64,000 nucleotides of DNA. Origin: an uncultured Rickettsiales bacterium. Lineage in GTDB: Bacteria > Pseudomonadota > Alphaproteobacteria > Rickettsiales > RGZB01. Shown here in pieces: positions 6,229-61,053 of the stretch (its first letter is position 1; every line of letters starts with the position of its first letter). Location: positions 320-64,319 of the forward strand of contig CAYXPR010000007.1 of NCBI GenBank assembly GCA_964467255.1. The letters run 5' to 3'. Made by a program: the position numbers and the translations under genes. The notes under the pieces were generated by a model. The model saw only the letters and a program-made list of their open reading frames with translations, made no database searches and was not told where the DNA came from.

Positions 6229-9200
6229 TTAGGGGCCTACTGGCTCTTTAAGCGGCGTACAACCCGTCGGATAGTCAATCGGCGGAGTCGCATTTGGGTC
6301 AGGAATCGGGTTTGGCACTGTCCACGTCGATATTAACTGGCCAAGTACGTTGTATGACGTACCACATTCATCGCGCAGACCGACACGGGGACCACAGTTG
6401 TTACCACAGCGATTATACTCAGCCTGAGCTTGTGATGTTGCTGTCGTGTGATCCGAGCCAGAGTTTCTAGCTTCAGTATACTTTGTATTCGCAAACTGCT
6501 GGCAGTTCACACACCCTGCATCAAATGTACATTCCGCTGGCGGAGAGGTTGCGGGCTCGGCGCAACAACCACCCCCTACAGAATAGTTTGGCGGATCTGA
6601 TGCTGCTCTGCAGCCAACCCATGTGCTGTTCGCCTGACTTGCACAGGTACCTTGATTGCCATAATCAATAAAGTCGCCCATGTCCCTGATACAGTTATAG
6701 TACACGTTGTTTGATTTTTCTTGGCATGTGCAGCCACCACCGCCGGAACTACCGCCGGAGCCGCCACCAGAACCACCGCCAGAGCCACCACCGGAACCGC
6801 CGCCAGAGCCACCACCGGAACCACCGCCAGAGCCACCACCGGAACCACCGCCAGAGCCACCACCAGAGCCACCACCGGAGCCGCCGCCAGAACCACCGCC
6901 AGAACCGCCACCAGAGCCACCACCCGAACCACCGCCAGAACCGCCACCCGAACCACCGCCGGAGCCGCCACCAGAACCACCGCCGGAGCCGCCACCAGAA
7001 CCACCGCCGGAGCCGCCACCGGAACCAGAACCAAAACCAGATGAGGAACCGCTACTTGGGTCTGGCGGCAAGTTCATTGCAGATGCTGCGGGAAGCAGAT
7101 TGCTGGCGGTTGTGCCAGGTATACGTTCATTACCACCACGCAATGCTTCCGGCGGCTCGCACATACCGGCTGCTGTTTTTAAGAACGTCATAACATCGTC
7201 AAAACGATACGTACCAATATTCATTGTTTCGATCGGATTGGCCGCCGTGTCTTTTGTAATTGGCTGAGGCGGTTTGCACGCGTAGGTAATATGGCCAGCA
7301 GCAGAACCTGCACCAGGGGCTGGAAGGAGGTTTAGGTAATTGCGGTAATACACACCGTCAATCTGCACGATTTTATTTTTGTGCTGGTCGGAATTATTGC
7401 TATCCAAACTTGGACGATAAACCTTTATGCGGCGCCAGTTTTTCTCCGAACAAACGCGTGCATCAGGGTCGCGGCAGTCTGGGTATGAACCGCCTTCGTG
7501 GATCGTACGTTTAGTAACCCTGTTCCACCTATCCGTATTGCCGCAAATGTCCTGGTTCTTGCCCCAGTTCGATTCACTGACTCGAACAAACTTCTCGCCT
7601 TTTTGGAATTTGCATGGCTCGTTAGGATCGTAGCCATTAAAGTCGTCCCCCGGGTCATTCGGAACAAAATTTCTTATCGTGCCGTAGGCGTAATAGCAAT
7701 CGGTTCCAGGCGGAACAGGCGATTGGTTACATGCAGGTTTTACCCATTTTTCGGGCTGCTTGGCATCCATCTTCAGGTTTTCGAACTGCGTGGTGCTCGT
7801 TGCCCTGTTGCGGGAATATGTCAGACTGTAAGGATTGCCAGGGTTATATCTTTCAAAGCCCACGCCCTCAACATATGCCATGTGTCTGCGGTAACGACCA
7901 TCCTTTGGTGAACCATCTGCGTTGCAACGTTCTTTACGCTCCTGCTCAGACATTGAGGGATTATCACACGCGTCTTGATGCGGCGTACCATCCCCATAGG
8001 TGGTGCCCGCTTGCAGAGCTTCGGTGATTGTTTCGTCCCATATCAGTAAGTCGCCTTTTTGCGCGCAGTCAAGGCCGCCAAATTTGCCCTGAATCGTGTA
8101 GTTCTGACCGGGTCTAAGCGTTCCGACTTCGTCATAATACTTACCAAATTCTATCGTGTTATTTGGTGCATAATATTCCCATAGGCGCGCTTTGACGTTA
8201 CCAGCATAGTTGATGCCGTCATTGGCAAAGTCGGGGCCCGCAAAACCACGCCACACAATCGGCCAAGGCAGCATGTCATAAATTGGCCTACCATCTCGGC
8301 CTGTTTTTACGGTGTTAAAGAACATGCCCCCACGAAGCATCGCATACCCTGTGGCGCTGCCGACCTTAAAGTTTTTGTTATAGTCGCAAATACAATTCAG
8401 GCCAAATTTGCGCATACAGCGCGCTTGGTAGAGCATCATTTCATACCAACCGCCAATCGCGCAACCACGAGGGCCAACAATGTTTTCTTTTTGACGTGCG
8501 GTGATAGCACTGTCCGAAGAAAACACGGTGCCGTCATAATTCGCACCCGTTACGGAGCGAGCAATAATCCCATAGGCTGTGTCGTAAACCTGAGCTGGCA
8601 CAGGGTTGTTAACAAATGTACCGTCCGCCAACCTTCTGGGTGTCGGCAATGGTACGTTTGGTGACATAAATGGTGCTTCCGTCCACTCATAGTGCATGTC
8701 ATAACGCTTGCCAGCTGGCGGTAATGGCAAATAGGCCAATAATTGAGGTTCCTCAAACATCCAGCGGAGATTATATTTTTTATCCAGACCTAATACCGGA
8801 CTTTCCAGTGCCAATTCATTCGGTGGAATAGTATGGCTAACGTCACGTTCGGAAATGGGGCACGCAAGGTCTCGTGCATTCCAGAAACATTTACGCCATG
8901 ACTCATAGTGCAGTTTGATATCCTTCTGTTTGCAATCCTCATATTCATCCATACCTTGGGTGCAAATATTGTCCTCGTAGCAACGGCAATAGAAGTTATA
9001 GCCTGTGCACACAAGGAAGGTTTGCGCAAAAATATAGTCAAAGCGCTCCATCCTGAAATTCAGAATGTCGATGTTTTTGTGAACGCGTTGCAGGTGGTCT
9101 TTCCACAGGTTGCAGCGTTCGTCGTAACAAAAGAATTGGGCAACGTCGCGGCCTGCCCACGGTGCACTTAAATCATTGGGGTAATCTACCGCAGGACGTG

Positions 9201-10896
9201 GGCTATATGGATGACAGATTTCGCGGATACGTTCGACTGTTTTAAGGTTGGTCGGGCCAAATGGATACCGCGCTTCACTCTCTGTTGGAGGCGTTGAGTC
9301 TTGTGGCACCCACGGCGCAAGGGTCGTTGAGTTTGCACTCTTAAAGAGCGGTACTTCAAAATCCAACGGGTTAATGTTAGACGGTGTGAATTGCGCAAAC
9401 CACGTGCCTGCATCATATGCGTCATTAAATACTTGCCCTGGATCGACAGGAACATCCGGCGGCTTATAGAAGCTTGTGGGTATCTTGGTCGCCTTTGAAG
9501 GAGTTCCCGGGCCATTATTATCCATCACCCAGTGACCATTTATGTTTTCCGGAACGTCTTCCTGGCAGAAACGGAGATAGTTATCGCAACCTTCCATATC
9601 TGGTCCACCGCAGTGCCTTGGACCGCCACTGCCGCCACCCTGTCCACAACGACTAACAGGCGAACCGTCGGTAAATTTACTGACCGTGCAACGCTGCATC
9701 TGAGGTTTACAATTTGGGTTCGCCTTGCATGGCGGAGGTTGAATCATGCGCCAATATGGCATTGGTGGATAATAGGGGAAGTAGTTCCCCTGCGCGTATT
9801 TTCGGTCATATGGTGCAGGCGTTCCATTTGCTGGGGCGCCAACACTAGGAGGATAACTACTCACGCAGCCTCTCATACCAAAATACATAGCATTGGTGGG
9901 GCGTGGGGCGTCCTCGTTTTCCGCATATTGAAACTTTAAATCTGGCGGGCGGGTTGGCGGCGGATTTAACAGCCGGTTCATGCATACTTTTTTCTCAACA
10001 TCAATAAAGCCCATTGTGTAGAAATTGATGGCATCCATCAGCTCACTCCGCATCGGCGTGCGCTGAATCAACTGACAGTCATTATAAGAAAGGTGTGTCG
10101 GCATATCCGGCATGGTGATTTGGCCGCAATCGCCGAGGAATGCCGCCTCCGATATATAAAGCTCTATACAGACTTTACGTTTATATTTTTGACCTGGTTG
10201 GCTAATAACATCTTGCAGGTGGCTTGGGTTGCCAACTGGGTCAAAGTTCTCTCTTAAGTACCAATTGGGGTTTTCCTTATCCGCCAGCGGCATATAGTGG
10301 TCGCTAGGGTTGATTAGCTTTACAATCTTACGCCCTTGCGGATCAGGAGGGCCACCGGGGGTTTCCGGCGTAGTGTCATTGTTGCGATACTCTCCGCCAG
10401 GCCTCAAAAAATATTTGCAAAATTCATCAACGTCGTCGATGTAGTCGTCCTTCGCGCAAGACTTTTTACCTGATTCCGTCAATTGCCCTGATACAAAGCT
10501 GTACCCTGCAGAACAGCTTGGATCAACGCGCAGAATCTGATCGTCCGGTATGCGCTTAAATTCGTACTCATCCTCACTTGGGTCACGCTTTTTGGTAAAA
10601 CGATATTCAGGGCGATAACAGCCCGTGATGTTTGGCCAATATTGCTCTAAGCCACCCTCGTAGAGCGGGCCTGAATATGATTTATCAAGACACTCCTGCT
10701 TGGTATCACCTTTTAAGTAAATGCATGGGTTAAGAAAATTAGAGTTTGCCGGCGGGGTGATACGATTCGGGATTTGGCACTGCGGTTCAGGGATATTTGC
10801 ATTGGCCGCATGGGGCTCTTTCGGCAACAAAACGAGCATAAGGGAAAGGGCTAATCCCCCCACTAATGCAGGTATCAGATGGCGTTTTTGTCGCAT
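6229..10896 (-). CDS. Giant secreted cysteine-rich protein of unknown family (1555 aa)
   Basis: One uninterrupted ORF. N-terminal signal peptide (MRQKRHLIPALVGGLALSLMLVLLPKEPHAANA) and no further TM segments. About 58 Cys by manual count; rich in P/Y/W/N/D/G. A 108-aa Gly/Ser tract is followed by a 167-aa C-terminal module with 14 Cys. I recognise no family. Confidence 0.85.
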   Translation of the reverse strand: MRQKRHLIPALVGGLALSLMLVLLPKEPHAANANIPEPQCQIPNRITPPANSNFLNPCIYLKGDTKQECLDKSYSGPLYEGGLEQYWPNITGCYRPEYRFTKKRDPSEDEYEFKRIPDDQILRVDPSCSAGYSFVSGQLTESGKKSCAKDDYIDDVDEFCKYFLRPGGEYRNNDTTPETPGGPPDPQGRKIVKLINPSDHYMPLADKENPNWYLRENFDPVGNPSHLQDVISQPGQKYKRKVCIELYISEAAFLGDCGQITMPDMPTHLSYNDCQLIQRTPMRSELMDAINFYTMGFIDVEKKVCMNRLLNPPPTRPPDLKFQYAENEDAPRPTNAMYFGMRGCVSSYPPSVGAPANGTPAPYDRKYAQGNYFPYYPPMPYWRMIQPPPCKANPNCKPQMQRCTVSKFTDGSPVSRCGQGGGSGGPRHCGGPDMEGCDNYLRFCQEDVPENINGHWVMDNNGPGTPSKATKIPTSFYKPPDVPVDPGQVFNDAYDAGTWFAQFTPSNINPLDFEVPLFKSANSTTLAPWVPQDSTPPTESEARYPFGPTNLKTVERIREICHPYSPRPAVDYPNDLSAPWAGRDVAQFFCYDERCNLWKDHLQRVHKNIDILNFRMERFDYIFAQTFLVCTGYNFYCRCYEDNICTQGMDEYEDCKQKDIKLHYESWRKCFWNARDLACPISERDVSHTIPPNELALESPVLGLDKKYNLRWMFEEPQLLAYLPLPPAGKRYDMHYEWTEAPFMSPNVPLPTPRRLADGTFVNNPVPAQVYDTAYGIIARSVTGANYDGTVFSSDSAITARQKENIVGPRGCAIGGWYEMMLYQARCMRKFGLNCICDYNKNFKVGSATGYAMLRGGMFFNTVKTGRDGRPIYDMLPWPIVWRGFAGPDFANDGINYAGNVKARLWEYYAPNNTIEFGKYYDEVGTLRPGQNYTIQGKFGGLDCAQKGDLLIWDETITEALQAGTTYGDGTPHQDACDNPSMSEQERKERCNADGSPKDGRYRRHMAYVEGVGFERYNPGNPYSLTYSRNRATSTTQFENLKMDAKQPEKWVKPACNQSPVPPGTDCYYAYGTIRNFVPNDPGDDFNGYDPNEPCKFQKGEKFVRVSESNWGKNQDICGNTDRWNRVTKRTIHEGGSYPDCRDPDARVCSEKNWRRIKVYRPSLDSNNSDQHKNKIVQIDGVYYRNYLNLLPAPGAGSAAGHITYACKPPQPITKDTAANPIETMNIGTYRFDDVMTFLKTAAGMCEPPEALRGGNERIPGTTASNLLPAASAMNLPPDPSSGSSSGFGSGSGGGSGGGSGGGSGGGSGGGSGGGSGGGSGGGSGGGSGGGSGGGSGGGSGGGSGGGSGGGSGGGSGGGSGGGSGGGSGGGSGGGSGGGSGGSSGGGGCTCQEKSNNVYYNCIRDMGDFIDYGNQGTCASQANSTWVGCRAASDPPNYSVGGGCCAEPATSPPAECTFDAGCVNCQQFANTKYTEARNSGSDHTTATSQAQAEYNRCGNNCGPRVGLRDECGTSYNVLGQLISTWTVPNPIPDPNATPPIDYPTGCTPLKEPVGP
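6733..7056 (-). repeat. In-frame tandem repeat encoding (GGGS)x22 within a 108-aa Gly/Ser tract
   Basis: 12-nt periodicity, core about 6758..7021. The unit count of 22 comes from ORF-length arithmetic in two frames. Units vary synonymously (Ser TCC/TCT/TCG, Gly GGT/GGC) while the peptide is perfect. Confidence 0.95.
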
Positions 10897-52572: not shown

Positions 52573-53250
52573 TTACTGCGCAGCAGCTGGTTCCGCAGTT
52601 GGCTGTACGGCAGGCTGTTCAGGCACAGGTGCCGGTTCAGCAGCAGGTGCCGTTACGGCAGGCGCAGCAGGTACTGCCTCACCCTGCGGCGGAACGGCCG
52701 CAGCATCAGGCATTGCTTGTGGCGCAGCCGGAGCAGCTGCTGGCGCTTCAGCGGGAGCAACCGCGGCAGGCTGTGCTGCCGGAGCTGCTGCTGGTGCAGC
52801 AGGTGCTTCTGAAGGGACAGCAAGCGGCATTGGTTCTGCCGGAGCAGCAAGCGGCACCTGAGGTACCGAAGGATTGCCTTCGTCATTCTTCACAACCGGT
52901 GCTTCACCGGGAATCTGAACACCAGAAGCAGGTGTTGTATCTTTTTTCTGGCACATGTCAGAGGCAGGGTTCACTGTGCAGATAACGAGCGCCCATAAAA
53001 TAGGGCTGGTCGCCATACCAACGCCAGAAAGTGCCGTGCCGATTACGCCAGTAATAAATTGTTTTTTAATGAGCGAAAAAACACCCAGCACTAAACCAAG
53101 AACAGAAATCACTCCCAAAAGAGGGACCATGCTCAGGCCACCAAATACAATACTGAGAATACCAAGAACCGGCGTCGAGCGGCTCATCTGGTTAATAGTA
53201 ATGTTTTGTGGAGGCAGATTTGCGTTATTCGGCGGCAGTGGCTCGTTCAT
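52573..53250 (-). CDS. Membrane protein with DUF4190-like N-terminus and about 110-aa Pro/Ala-rich tail
   Basis: 225 aa with two or three TM helices (VLGILSIVFGGLSMVPLLGVISVLGLVLGVF). The tail is made of PA/AP/AAP low-complexity sequence and is locally GC-rich. Confidence 0.6.
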   Translation of the reverse strand: MNEPLPPNNANLPPQNITINQMSRSTPVLGILSIVFGGLSMVPLLGVISVLGLVLGVFSLIKKQFITGVIGTALSGVGMATSPILWALVICTVNPASDMCQKKDTTPASGVQIPGEAPVVKNDEGNPSVPQVPLAAPAEPMPLAVPSEAPAAPAAAPAAQPAAVAPAEAPAAAPAAPQAMPDAAAVPPQGEAVPAAPAVTAPAAEPAPVPEQPAVQPTAEPAAAQ

Positions 53251-56623: not shown

Positions 56624-57100
56624 TTAAGCAGCGGGTGCTTCAGCGGCAGGTGCTGCAGGCTGTGCTGCGGCAGCAGCTTCAGCAGCAGCGGCGTCGGCGT
56701 CTGCCTTCGCTTTTGCAGCAGCAGCTTCTTCAGCAGCGGCTTTTGCAGCAGCAGCTGCATCGGCTTTCGCCTTAGCTTCAATCTGCTTCTTCTTGAGAGA
56801 AATGATTTCAGCGCGACGCTCGTTCAGCTTCTTCACCTGAGAAACGCCCTGACCAATGCCCTGCTGATTAAAGAACACCAGCACGCGCTCAGACGGGATC
56901 GCACCGCTGGCAAGCCAGTATTCCGCACGGTCTTTCTGAATCGTGAGGCGAGTTGCATCCGTTTTCGGCAGCAGCGGGTTATACGCGCCAATCTTCTCGA
57001 TGAAGCGACCATCGCGTGATTTAGCCTGATCGGCCACCACGATACGATAGTAAGGGCGTTTCTTAGCACCACCACGGGTCAAACGAATCTTCACTGCCAT
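56624..57100 (-). CDS. rpsP: 30S ribosomal protein S16 with Ala-rich tail
   Basis: [24 protein letters not shown]; the last about 60 aa are Ala/Lys/Glu-rich. Confidence 0.96.
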
Positions 57101-57239
57101 GCGAATTCCTTAAATATTTTGTCGGCAACATTGCCGAAATTTTGCTTAGGGCGTATGCGTATAGTGCAAAAGAGATATGTTGTAAAGTGCTTTGTTAGCC
57201 TTTTAGGCACACTGCATAGCAATACACGCGCGAGGATTT

Positions 57240-57452
57240 TTAGTGAAAAATACCCGCAATAATCTCTATCAGTTTGAAAAATATGCGAAAAACAAGGTAG
57301 AAGGCCAAAATGGAAAATATTACCACAAAGACCATCTTCCACCACACCAAGCCCAAAAGCCATTCTGTGGGGCCCGCAAAAGAATCAATAAATTCCTGCA
57401 TCGCACCTATGAAAACAAACGGCGTGTGCATCATTAATAGCAAGCTTTTCAT
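57240..57452 (-). CDS. Small hydrophobic protein (70 aa, two predicted TM helices)
   Basis: ATG 57452 has GAAGG 8 nt upstream. Sequence MKSLLLMMHTPFVFIGA...LLGLVWWKMVFVVIFSILAFYLVF. AT-rich. No family recognised. Confidence 0.5.
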   Translation of the reverse strand: MKSLLLMMHTPFVFIGAMQEFIDSFAGPTEWLLGLVWWKMVFVVIFSILAFYLVFRIFFKLIEIIAGIFH

Positions 57453-57465
57453 CACCAACCTTCTT

Positions 57466-57654
57466 CTACGACTTGAACCACGAAGCTATTAGCAGAAGAT
57501 ATAGGCTTATCGCAACACCTATTGTTCCAAAGCCAAGACCAATTTGCCATGCTGTGGGCAATTCCATAAACCATTTTAATGCATCATCATAGTTTTCGAT
57601 GTCCACAACCGATTGTAGGTAGTCTGGCAAAAACGTGACTGTCGCGTACACCAT
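57466..57654 (-). CDS. Small tail-anchored membrane protein (62 aa)
   Basis: ATG 57654 lies 2 nt after the glmU stop. Acidic soluble N-terminal half, then one TM (IGLGFGTIGVAISLYLLLIASW). No family recognised. Confidence 0.5.
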   Translation of the reverse strand: MVYATVTFLPDYLQSVVDIENYDDALKWFMELPTAWQIGLGFGTIGVAISLYLLLIASWFKS

Positions 57655-57656
57655 GC

Positions 57657-59015
57657 TTATTTCTTCTTTCTGGGTTTTGATTTTCGTAGCGCCTGAGCAC
57701 GGCCCACCACATTCTTCTGTGGCATGGCGTTAATGGCAAGGCCACCGGCCGGAACATCTTTTAATATGGTGCTGCCCGCACCCGTGATTGCCCCCTTGCC
57801 CACTTTTACCGGAGCCACAAGGCTGGTGTTTGAGCCGATGAAGGCATCTTCGCCGATAACAGTTTTGTGTTTATTCACACCGTCGTAATTGCAGGTGATG
57901 GTGCCTGCACCGATATTACTGTTTGCCCCCACATCCGCATCCCCCACATAAGAAAGGTGGTTGATTTTTGCGCCCTTGCCGATTTTAGATTTTTTGATTT
58001 CAACAAAATTACCGATGTGCGCCCCCTCGCCGATTTCAGCACCCGGGCGGATGCGTGCATAAGGCCCCACAACAGCGTTTTTCTTGATAATCGCTTGATC
58101 GATGTGGCTGAAAGATTTTATTTCGACATCATCTTCTACCTTCACGCCATCGCCGAATACAACATACGGATGGATGACAACATCTTTACCGATTTTCGTA
58201 TCGTGGCGAAGGTGGATGGTTTCTGCACTGATGAGCGTTGCACCCCCCAGCATCGCCGCTTCGCGCAGGCGCTGCTGAACGATAGATTCACCCACCGCAA
58301 GTTCAGCGCGGTTGTTAATGCCCATCACTTCAAGTTCATCCGCTTCAGCCACCACGCAAGCATAACCTTGCACGCGTGCAATCTTCACGAGGTCGGTTAA
58401 ATAATACTCGCCCTTGCTGTTATCGTTCTTCACTTGTGACAAGAGAGAATCCAAAAGTTCAGACCGCACCGCCATCACGCCGGAGTTGCACAAGGTGATA
58501 GCACGCTCTGCCTCGCTTGCTTCTTTATATTCTACGATGGCATTCAGCATACCGAAATCGCCCAGCACCAAGCGGCCATATTCACCCGCGTTAGCAGGCG
58601 TAAAGCCGAGCACCGCAAGCGCAGCATGTGATTCTTTTTGAATGGCATCAATCATGCGCTGCAAGGTAGCAGGGCTGATAAATGGTGTATCGCCATATAA
58701 GATAAAGGTGATGCCAGACTTGCCCATGTGCTTTAAGGCAGACTTCACCGCATCCGCCGTGCCGAGCTGCTTTTGCTGAATGGCGATTTTTGCTTTCGGC
58801 AGGCAGCGTGCCACTTCGGCTTCCACCGCCTTCATGCCGTTTGCCAGCACTACCGACGTATTCACGGCTTTCAGTGACTTCACTGTTTCCAGCACATAGG
58901 CCAGCATGCTGCGGCCTGCAATTTCATGCAGCACTTTTTCGCGCACGGATTTCATACGCGTGCCTTTGCCCGCTGCAAGGATAATTGCCTGAATGGGAAG
59001 CGATGTTTTTGCCAT
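57657..59015 (-). CDS. glmU: Bifunctional GlcNAc-1-P uridyltransferase / GlcN-1-P acetyltransferase
   Basis: Start MAKTSLPIQAIILAAGKGTRMKS at 59015. C-terminal left-handed beta-helix. Confidence 0.95.
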   Translation of the reverse strand: MAKTSLPIQAIILAAGKGTRMKSVREKVLHEIAGRSMLAYVLETVKSLKAVNTSVVLANGMKAVEAEVARCLPKAKIAIQQKQLGTADAVKSALKHMGKSGITFILYGDTPFISPATLQRMIDAIQKESHAALAVLGFTPANAGEYGRLVLGDFGMLNAIVEYKEASEAERAITLCNSGVMAVRSELLDSLLSQVKNDNSKGEYYLTDLVKIARVQGYACVVAEADELEVMGINNRAELAVGESIVQQRLREAAMLGGATLISAETIHLRHDTKIGKDVVIHPYVVFGDGVKVEDDVEIKSFSHIDQAIIKKNAVVGPYARIRPGAEIGEGAHIGNFVEIKKSKIGKGAKINHLSYVGDADVGANSNIGAGTITCNYDGVNKHKTVIGEDAFIGSNTSLVAPVKVGKGAITGAGSTILKDVPAGGLAINAMPQKNVVGRAQALRKSKPRKKK

Positions 59016-59107
59016 AGTAAATAATGAATAAAACCGGTTGAGGTCTGGGTGGCAAGAGCATATGTTCATGGCAGGGAATTGCCAACATATATTTGTTAGT
59101 CGCGCAT

Positions 59108-60388: not shown

Positions 60389-60423
60389 GCCACTGATTTT
60401 TCAATTTTATCTTTATTTGCAAT

Positions 60424-60451
60424 AAAATTAGTTAAAATCTTAACTAATTTT
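60424..60451. promoter_or_regulatory. Perfect 12-bp inverted repeat, AT-only; weak rmuC terminator and/or operator
   Basis: AAAATTAGTTAA-AATC-TTAACTAATTTT. It contains TTAA-N4-TTAA and, with 60451..60454, a TTAA-N7-TTAA (60440..60454). Confidence 0.5.
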
Positions 60452-60500
60452 TAACCACCTCAGTTGCATAATTACAACATCACTTGTTTCTTGTTCCGTA

Positions 60501-60566
60501 GGACAAATTGCTAATGTCCACCGGGACAAGCAAACTACGGACAGGTTGCAACCGTGATGACTGTCC
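60501..60566. promoter_or_regulatory. Cluster of five GGACA/TGTCC repeats forming two hairpins or operator pairs in the leader of the GC-rich ORF
   Basis: GGACA at 60501, 60524 and 60539; TGTCC at 60515 and 60562. Pairs are GGACA-N9-TGTCC and GGACAG-N16-CTGTCC. The second encloses the 10-bp palindrome GGTTGCAACC (60544..60553). Confidence 0.6.
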
Positions 60567-60643
60567 CTGACACTGCCCTACTACCCCCCAAACCAAATTC
60601 ATACGGGGGAAACGGGCTCTACACCTTTGAAAGGGGTGTTACG

Positions 60644-60943
60644 ATGGCGAAGACTCTGGCCGACCTCCAGAACGACGTGCGCAAGAACGTGGCGACCGGC
60701 ATCCAGACGGTGATCGACGAGATCGGTGACATGAAGGCGAAGGACTTCCACGCCGTGGAAGGCCTCGCCGGCTACCTCAACCGACTGGTCGCGCTCGTCG
60801 AAGTCCTCAACAAGGGCAACGACGTGCACATCCGCCTGCAGGATGAAGGCAAGTACGACGATCGCTCGAACAAGACCGTCTACTACACGTACGCCACGGT
60901 CGAGATCCCCGCGAAGGCGAAGGACAACACGGCGACGAGCTGA
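60644..60943 (+). CDS. Orphan 99-aa protein with extreme GC3, unknown family
   Basis: ATG 60644 has GAAAGGGG upstream. 91 of 99 third codon positions are G/C by manual count, against about half in neighbouring genes and in the 30 in-frame codons upstream. Predicted helical N-terminal half, then beta-like DVHIRLQ / TVYYTYATVEIP. Confidence 0.7.
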   Translation: MAKTLADLQNDVRKNVATGIQTVIDEIGDMKAKDFHAVEGLAGYLNRLVALVEVLNKGNDVHIRLQDEGKYDDRSNKTVYYTYATVEIPAKAKDNTATS

Positions 60944-61017
60944 GTAGGAACCGGACCTTGAGTCCAAACCGCGCTGTGCCGTATGCACAGAACCGATTAC
61001 GCTAACGCGTGATTGGG

Positions 61018-61042
61018 GACCCACCTAACAAGGTGGGTCTTT
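61018..61042 (+). terminator. Hairpin terminator after the GC-rich ORF
   Basis: GACCCACC-TAACAA-GGTGGGTC then TTT (short U tract). An additional hairpin, CTGTGC-CGTAT-GCACAG, lies at 60974..60990. Confidence 0.6.
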
Positions 61043-61053
61043 CGCCATGACTG

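Follow-up and report, generated by a model that had tools for sequence, protein, structure and literature searches.

The locus between rmuC and a DUF3617-like gene in an uncultured Rickettsiales bacterium raises the question of how a single small gene came to differ so strongly in codon usage from its surroundings. The window analyzed here is a stretch of 64,000 nucleotides of contig CAYXPR010000007.1 (assembly GCA_964467255.1), and the open reading frame (ORF) in question, hereafter ORF99, occupies positions 60644..60943 of its plus strand (99 codons and a TGA stop codon). A previous sequence-only reading interpreted it as a very recent acquisition from a high-GC donor, possibly an actinobacterium or a phage, and considered an assembly chimera or an engineered insertion. 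The comparison of three diverged lineages points elsewhere. There is little doubt that ORF99 is a real gene already present in the ancestor of a small clade, neither a recent insert nor an artefact, and we lean towards the interpretation that it is an orphan small-protein gene, old in this clade, whose messenger RNA (mRNA) is under selection for its composition and its ends.

The compositional anomaly itself is solid. A recount confirmed G or C at the third position of 91 of the 99 codons, and the G/C contents at the first, second and third codon positions (GC1, GC2 and GC3) are 0.61, 0.32 and 0.92, respectively. Neighboring sequences are at about half, as had been claimed: GC3 is 0.54 in rmuC, 0.53 in the DUF3617-like gene and 0.53 in the 30 in-frame codons located 5' of ORF99 (60554..60643). 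The jump observed at the ATG in 60644 was also confirmed; the anomaly begins exactly at this codon and ends exactly at the stop codon, and no GC enrichment is seen in the untranslated regions (UTRs) of ORF99 (GC 0.41-0.56) or in the last codons of the two flanking genes. The GC3 distribution, suggested as a genome-wide check, was computed for the window, where the 59 non-overlapping ORFs of at least 100 amino acids have a mean of 0.56, a standard deviation of 0.05 and a maximum of 0.66, so that none of them approaches ORF99, which lies about 7 standard deviations from the mean. The genes of the ribosomal proteins S16 and L19 have a GC3 of 0.49-0.50. A phase-specific scan of the window detected other strongly periodic stretches, all of them Gly/Ala-rich repeats driven by codon positions 1 and 2, and none driven by GC3. 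ORF99 was therefore upheld as a real single-gene unit that stands alone, is unique in its composition and has structured UTRs. The excess does not extend to the second codon position, where ORF99 lies below the native mean of 0.41: GC2 is 0.26-0.29 in the constrained N-terminal part of the gene and 0.45-0.61 in the weakly constrained C-terminal part. This rise agrees with a pressure towards G/C that operates where the protein tolerates it, and not with the amino-acid make-up of a high-GC donor. T makes up 12.5 % of ORF99, which contains a single TT dinucleotide and no AU-rich hexamers, versus 47.6 of these hexamers per 300 nt in rmuC.

The age of the gene was studied by comparing the window with two other lineages, L001 (contig JBIKVZ010000002.1, from a Lake Mendota metagenome-assembled genome labeled 'Rickettsiales bacterium') and L005 (a Logan contig, SRR22388193). 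A more distant locus, L007, was used as outgroup, and two further assemblies, L008 and L009, were also considered. The proposed search for the cassette at the rmuC locus of relatives found it in L001 and L005, and all the copies are located 3' of rmuC, between this gene and the DUF3617 gene, with which they are convergent. The cassette is absent from L007, the nearest outgroup, which encodes the next closest RmuC in the database (59 % identical); its locus is syntenic (S16-glmU-rmuC...recR-ybaB-dnaX) and the cassette site holds an unrelated low-GC3 ORF. No presence/absence polymorphism was seen, as all three known lineages have the cassette at the same locus. Over 7 kb, the window matches L001 at 87.7 %, and the flanking genes are about 86 % identical in DNA; the RmuC proteins share 92-95 % identity among lineages, and 40-54 % of the 4-fold degenerate sites in rmuC and the DUF3617 gene differ between them, a divergence of the order of the Escherichia-Salmonella split. 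Across this distance, the GC3 of ORF99 is 0.92, 0.87 and 0.88 in the three lineages. The cassette is thus very probably older than the split of these three species-level lineages and confined to their small clade of freshwater bacteria. Since that split, ORF99 has been transmitted vertically and has stayed at the rmuC/DUF3617 locus; its ultimate origin is possibly foreign. The L001 allele has 100 % identical copies in four further samples and a 99.6 % identical variant in a fifth. L009 (SRR18907910) is 99.6 % identical to L001 and two of its six substitutions are in ORF99, both C>A (a synonymous CTC>CTA and the replacement A84E).

The persistence of the anomaly was examined at synonymous sites, where ancestral states were assigned by majority among the three lineages (S standing for G/C and W for A/T). 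At strict 4-fold sites with an ancestral G/C, S>W changes affect 2 of 22 sites in ORF99 versus 60 of 128 in rmuC and the DUF3617 gene (Fisher p = 0.0007), whereas the S>S changes, 4/22 versus 16/128, do not differ significantly. When the 4-fold and 2-fold codons of conserved residues are taken together, the S>W changes amount to 6 of 40 in ORF99 and 93 of 195 in the flanking genes (Fisher p = 9e-5). Synonymous S>W changes are thus about 3-5 times rarer in ORF99 than in its neighbors, and C<->G exchanges account for 13 of its 22 pairwise 4-fold differences, versus about 16 % in the neighbors. Since G and C replace each other at a normal rate, the S>W deficit does not come from a younger coalescence of the ORF; and since these swaps are free, the constraint opposes G/C to A/T and does not concern particular codons. 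These substitution patterns make it probable that selection maintains the GC3 of ORF99 against A/T-ending codons. An RNA fold inside ORF99 was considered as the cause of its GC3 and rejected (z = -0.99, with many broken pairs in the consensus).

The coding status of ORF99 was evaluated on the same alignment. Its orthologues encode 99, 99 and 97 amino acids, their sole indel is of 6 nt and in frame, and the stop position is kept; frame-breaking indels begin directly 5' of the ATG. An in-frame N-terminal extension from a GTG in 60554 was discarded, as L001 has frame-shifting indels in this segment and the upstream peptides are unrelated. ORF99 is the most diverged coding segment of the locus, with a DNA identity of 72-77 % (23-28 % divergence) and a protein identity of 61-63 % between lineages. 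The ratio of nonsynonymous to synonymous substitution rates (dN/dS) is 0.39-0.57 in codons 1-68 and 0.7-0.84 in the whole gene, and reaches 0.9-1.7 in a fast-evolving C-terminal third (codons 69-99, 60848..60940 on the plus strand), where DNA identity falls to 37-65 %; all these values are inflated because dS itself is depressed. Scaled to the neutral divergence of its neighbors, the evolutionary rate of the ORF99 protein would be approximately 5-8 times that of RmuC or of the DUF3617 protein. Frame and length are kept in diverged orthologues and the N-terminal part is under purifying selection, as expected from a coding sequence, and on this comparative evidence ORF99 is a genuine protein-coding orphan gene. 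A C-terminus as variable as this one would suit an interaction surface whose constraint is shifting or relaxed. Adenine mutagenesis of the type produced by diversity-generating retroelements was rejected for this region, as the differences in the alignment are not confined to A positions.

Contrary to the coding region, the ends of the cassette hardly changed. The 3' UTR (60944..61053, plus strand) contains 94 nt (60953-61046) that are identical in the three lineages and four predicted hairpins (60953-60965, 60974-60990, 60993-61016 and 61017-61040), the last of which is terminator-like and lies between two convergent genes. The minimum free energy (MFE) of its fold is -48.1 kcal/mol (z = -4.43) on the plus strand versus -43.8 (z = -3.08) on the minus strand; the hairpin in 60993-61016 has two G-U pairs that become mismatches if read on the minus strand, and the one in 61017-61040 has a stem of 9-10 bp and the tail TCTTTCGCC. 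On the 5' side, a leader core of 76 nt (60467..60542, plus strand; alignment columns 88-163) is also identical in the three lineages. Nearby neutral intergenic DNA is only 42-62 % identical, with 42-58 % in the stretches 57197-57278 and 57547-57636, whereas the UTR blocks are 100 % identical. Judging from the alignment, the non-coding ends of ORF99 are under very strong constraint. Two other intergenic stretches, 57047-57166 (upstream of rpsP) and 58957-59106 (the divergent glmU/rmuC region), are 98-100 % identical to L001, versus about 86 % in the coding DNA next to them. Both are presumed to be regulatory, and in this clade such DNA seems to be under a much stronger constraint than synonymous sites. 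The UTR sequences have no second copy in the window, and a repeated element was rejected on these grounds as the cause of their identity. Searches for the UTR patterns matched only the L001 genome in the genome collection, while two metagenome scans and the viral contigs returned nothing.

The leader and the region upstream of it contain several candidate control elements. The segment between the rmuC stop codon and the leader (60389..60483, plus strand) is AT-rich (GC 0.25), 87-97 % identical to L001, and presumably holds a promoter or operator. A sigma-70 consensus scan found no site in it, and a search by eye for sigma-32-like, EcfG, sigma-54, CtrA and LexA sites only revealed a loose CTTG-N17-CTAATGT likeness, too weak to be claimed. 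This segment contains a perfect palindrome (60424..60451) made up of two 12-nt arms, 100 % complementary, and a 4-nt spacer, AAAATTAGTTAA-aatc-TTAACTAATTTT. It is kept with 1-3 changes in L001 and L005 and sits within a looser TGCAA...TTGCA inverted repeat; no known motif matched it, but it looks like an operator and may be a binding site. A third substitution of L009 returns one palindrome arm to the sequence of the window. The leader fold (60470-60660) has a z of -2.74, and four hairpins are predicted on the plus strand. The first, a long stem that encloses a GGACA...UGUCC hairpin (60487..60534), is found in both the RNAalifold consensus and the MFE fold. The second (GGACAG...CUGUCC, 60539..60566) has a conserved stem, with one A-U to G-U change, and a variable loop. 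The third (GCCC..CCCCC...GGGGG..GGGC, 60575..60617) also has a variable loop and comes from the RNAalifold consensus. The last is a small ACACC/GGUGU hairpin of 5 bp (60621..60639), whose arms are kept in the three lineages and which would pair the 3' end of the Shine-Dalgarno element. The latter, already noted by the sequence-only reading upstream of the ATG, corresponds to GAAAGGGG in 60629-60636, 7 nt 5' of the start codon. Most variation in the leader falls in loops, with that A-U to G-U change in a stem, and these structures are plausible. A possible upstream ORF of 18 amino acids (uORF; MSTGTSKLRT..., 60514..60570, plus strand) overlaps them; it has 13 amino acids in L001 and is fused in frame to ORF99 in L005, where the database protein P0003 (139 amino acids) corresponds to this fusion.

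Several scenarios may explain this combination of features. The original hypothesis of a very recent acquisition, an assembly chimera or an engineered insert was motivated by the extreme GC3 and the sharp boundaries, but it is now barely credible. Cassettes with the same composition occupy the same locus in two lineages with 40-54 % divergence at 4-fold sites, as well as in six further samples, which contradicts a recent arrival and, because these orthologues lie at one locus in diverged lineages, makes a chimera or an engineered insert untenable. Moreover, L008 (a Logan assembly, SRR12816583) matches the window at 100 % over 3 kb and spans both junctions, although SRR12816583 may also be the source run of the window's own assembly. 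An ancient transfer from a high-GC donor into the ancestor of the clade, with GC3 as a slowly decaying relic free of selection, deserves more attention. It would account for the alien codon usage, the lack of homologues and the net flux at third positions (S>W 15 versus W>S 2), and an ancient foreign origin could coexist with later selection. Nevertheless, for an equal divergence, S>W changes are 3-5 times less frequent in ORF99 than in the flanks, with no shortage of S>S changes. A neutrally decaying segment should also have a donor-like composition at all codon positions and in its flanks; yet the composition jumps precisely where the ORF starts and ends, the UTRs show no GC excess, and a GC2 of 0.32 is below the native mean and unlike the proteins of high-GC genomes. 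In fact, the known correlations among GC1, GC2 and GC3 do not lead one to expect this value from a genome with a GC3 of about 0.9. Together with the absence of phage, plasmid or viral-contig matches, this GC2 also speaks against the actinobacterial or phage donor previously proposed, and we regard the relic scenario as rather unlikely. Alternatively, a very high expression could have tuned the codons of ORF99 to the host tRNA pool. The C-ending codons of two-fold Y boxes (TAC, AAC) are indeed enriched in the S16 sample too, but the S16 and L19 genes have an ordinary GC3, favor GCT and GAA and use AAA about as often as AAG, whereas ORF99 uses GCG/GCC, GTC, CTC and AAG (9/9), including several codons that native genes seldom use. 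Since G and C swap freely, the constraint does not bear on specific codons, and this explanation seems quite improbable. A recombination hot spot bordered by the identical UTRs and subject to GC-biased gene conversion is even harder to accept: identical flanks would allow exchange between lineages and GC2 is 0.45-0.61 in the C-terminal third, but neither the UTRs nor the last codons of the two flanking genes are GC-enriched, and ORF99 is the most diverged segment of the locus instead of a homogenized one.

Other alternatives question which product matters. An antisense ORF of 141 amino acids (60599..61024, minus strand; GC1 0.82) is codon-aligned with ORF99, and the sense ORF could in principle be the shadow of this gene. 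The antisense frame is open in all three loci (141, 134 and 130 amino acids), the sense frame does no better than its dN/dS of 0.5-0.68, and it was the choice of the gene caller in L008. Yet, it is automatically open, because G/C at the third position of the sense codons excludes stop codons, which begin with T, and as a gene it would have 82-92 % G/C at its first codon position. Its GTG start lies inside the terminator-like hairpin without a ribosome-binding site, its N-terminus corresponds to the invariant 3' UTR and its C-terminal end drifts; the sense ORF, on the contrary, has a conserved Shine-Dalgarno element and ATG, a near-invariant N-terminus and a conserved stop position. The antisense ORF has no family match and no relatives in the databases other than its own copy. 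A real antisense gene is therefore highly unlikely, and the previous interpretation of this ORF as the shadow of GC3-rich coding DNA holds. In the Logan assembly L008, the annotated gene is the antisense ORF (8197-8622) and not ORF99. No called gene on record corresponds exactly to the ORF99 product of the window, and the ORF99 family is therefore under-counted in protein collections. The locus could also encode a non-coding or dual-function RNA in which the UTR hairpins are functional, for instance as a small RNA (sRNA) derived from the 3' UTR, and the ORF is incidental or weakly selected. The conserved and structured 3' UTR expected in that case is present (94 invariant nt, z = -4.43), the UTRs are invariant while the ORF has diverged by 23-28 %, and the dN/dS of 0.7-0.84 is high. 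Nevertheless, the three-base periodicity, the kept length and stop, the in-frame indel, the purifying selection on the N-terminal part and the lack of Rfam matches make an incidental ORF improbable; the transcript may still have a dual function.

The interpretation that we favor is that the unit of selection is largely the mRNA of an old orphan gene, through its nucleic-acid composition and not through specific codons or a fold of the ORF. A U-poor coding region without AU-rich stretches, capped at both ends by stable hairpins, could resist 3' exonucleases and AU-directed endonucleases such as RNase E, whose sites prefer or require uridine. Translation of ORF99 would be gated by the small leader hairpin at the Shine-Dalgarno element, and transcription of the gene may be controlled at the 12+12 palindrome in 60424-60451. 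A bolder version, which we only mention as a speculation, is that this mRNA is selected as a physical object that escapes AU-directed RNases or an mRNA-cleaving toxin, or persists through dormancy or another unusual cellular context. In such a situation, and with the same reserve, the encoded small protein would stay free to diversify. Several observations weigh against the favored interpretation. The third positions show a net decay (15 S>W versus 2 W>S changes), so the GC3 bias has not reached an equilibrium; it is likely in slow decay from a still higher ancestral GC3, and may in part be a relic. The synonymous evidence comes from three lineages, 22 strict 4-fold S sites and ancestral states obtained by three-taxon parsimony. 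The leader consensus has 0 compensatory pairs, and the invariance of the UTR sequences gives the RNA structures no support from covariation. The 3' hairpin in 61017-61040, which the sequence-only reading considered a terminator belonging to the gene, is real as a hairpin, but the terminator scan did not report it, given its weak T-run. The AF2 models of the protein are of low confidence (pLDDT 64 and 53). Finally, the RNase-resistance rationale is deduced from composition and remains doubtful.

Some known systems resemble ORF99 in part. Atypical orphan ORFs (ORFans) that are read as horizontal acquisitions are also single genes with foreign codon usage and no detectable homologues. Contrary to them, ORF99 is shared at one locus by three diverged lineages, its anomaly is limited to synonymous sites and its GC2 is low, and the cassette is accompanied by neither mobility genes, nor tRNA, nor target-site duplication. 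The absence of these elements, reported previously, was confirmed in the window: ARAGORN detected no tRNA or tmRNA, the ORFs around the cassette are rmuC, the DUF3617-like gene and glmU, and the best flanking direct repeat (an 11/12 match whose second copy is inside the DUF3617 gene) is not convincing. Foreign genes are reportedly expected to ameliorate, a concept attributed to Lawrence and Ochman, but the synonymous G/C-to-A/T decay of ORF99 is several-fold slower than that of its neighbors and its composition is held. The mRNAs with functional 3' UTRs, 3'-UTR-derived sRNAs and dual-function RNAs, such as cpxP/CpxQ and SgrS/SgrT, are a second point of comparison. As in these systems, the non-coding ends of ORF99 are more conserved than its coding region and its multi-hairpin 3' end finishes in a terminator-like stem; it differs from them in that its coding region also bears a maintained compositional signature and that it has no Rfam match. 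Like the ROSE and fourU thermometers and the translational operators of alphaproteobacteria, the ORF99 leader has several hairpins and ends with one whose stem takes in part of the Shine-Dalgarno element. However, it matches no Rfam family (E <= 10, ROSE families included), the stem that involves the Shine-Dalgarno element has only 5 bp and the gene that follows is not a small heat-shock protein. Messengers devoid of ACA resist MazF, and ORF99 may resemble such nuclease-motif-depleted transcripts (MazF, RNase E) in being nearly free of AU-rich stretches and UU; its depletion is a general one of A/T and not motif-specific, so this likeness is hypothetical. The antisense ORF, codon-aligned and R/V/L/H-rich, does not differ from the ordinary shadows of GC3-rich genes.

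The product of ORF99 is a soluble and acidic protein of 99 amino acids (10.9 kDa, pI 5.6, grand average of hydropathy (GRAVY) -0.44) without any hydrophobic segment, and the small toxins of type I toxin-antitoxin systems were rejected on the basis of its length, its GRAVY and this lack of hydrophobic segment. Searches of 5.8 billion clustered proteins and of 1.84 billion representatives recovered only two relatives of this protein: the profile hidden Markov model search of the latter recovered the three orthologues and a spurious ankyrin-repeat protein, and the word-indexed search recovered two. Pfam, NCBIfam, PHROGs and PADLOC provided no significant match. DUF3206 was discarded as a chance sub-threshold match (15.5 bits for a cutoff of 23.7, in only one of the three orthologues). 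Among PDB sequences, the best match has an E of 0.57. The structural check that had been suggested (AlphaFold and Foldseek) was run, and all the PDB matches of the model have an E above 1; with low confidence, the models depict two helices forming a helical hairpin, followed by a beta hairpin. The tblastn search of phages and plasmids gave no match and the viral contigs contained no relative. The previous statement that the protein belongs to no recognizable family thus stood up to the family, structure and defence searches. At E <= 10, the best Rfam matches were mir-84 (18.9 bits for a threshold of 60) and RgsA (15.1 for 88.4), which overlap the AT-rich palindrome on the minus strand, and none was relevant. 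The literature searches returned nothing specific.

ORF99 is therefore an orphan gene of a familiar general kind, whose unusual trait is a synonymous anomaly probably maintained by selection and framed by invariant UTRs. If its mRNA is mainly selected as a physical object, it would be a natural bacterial case of gene-specific selection on synonymous sites at the level of composition, held across an approximately genus-level split. The GC3 of ORF99 has outlasted a turnover of about 40-50 % of the neutral sites in the neighboring genes. Atypical GC3 is routinely read as recent horizontal transfer, and composition alone would misdate ORF99. If mRNA stability or nuclease avoidance is the agent, ORF99 would be a natural single-gene system with its flanking genes as controls. 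Furthermore, gene callers choose sometimes the sense ORF and sometimes its antisense shadow, and members of such families thereby escape protein databases.

The synteny between the window and L001 stops just past the DUF3617 gene (from 61679 onward in the window and 7040 onward in L001). Beyond this point, the window has a large ORF of 796 amino acids (1172 in L008) with weak SdrD_B, CarboxypepD_reg and NOMO1-like matches, and L001 has a gene of 163 amino acids followed by recR-ybaB-dnaX. Elsewhere in the window, a minus-strand ORF of 1555 amino acids (6232-10896) without Pfam matches has a Cys-rich C-terminal region located after a (GGGS)n linker, made up of approximately 150 residues of near-perfect repeats (6674-7154). 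Another minus-strand ORF of 225 amino acids (52576-53250), also without Pfam matches, shows an inverted composition (GC1 0.72, GC2 0.56, GC3 0.40) and is probably a low-complexity Gly/Ala/Pro-rich protein.

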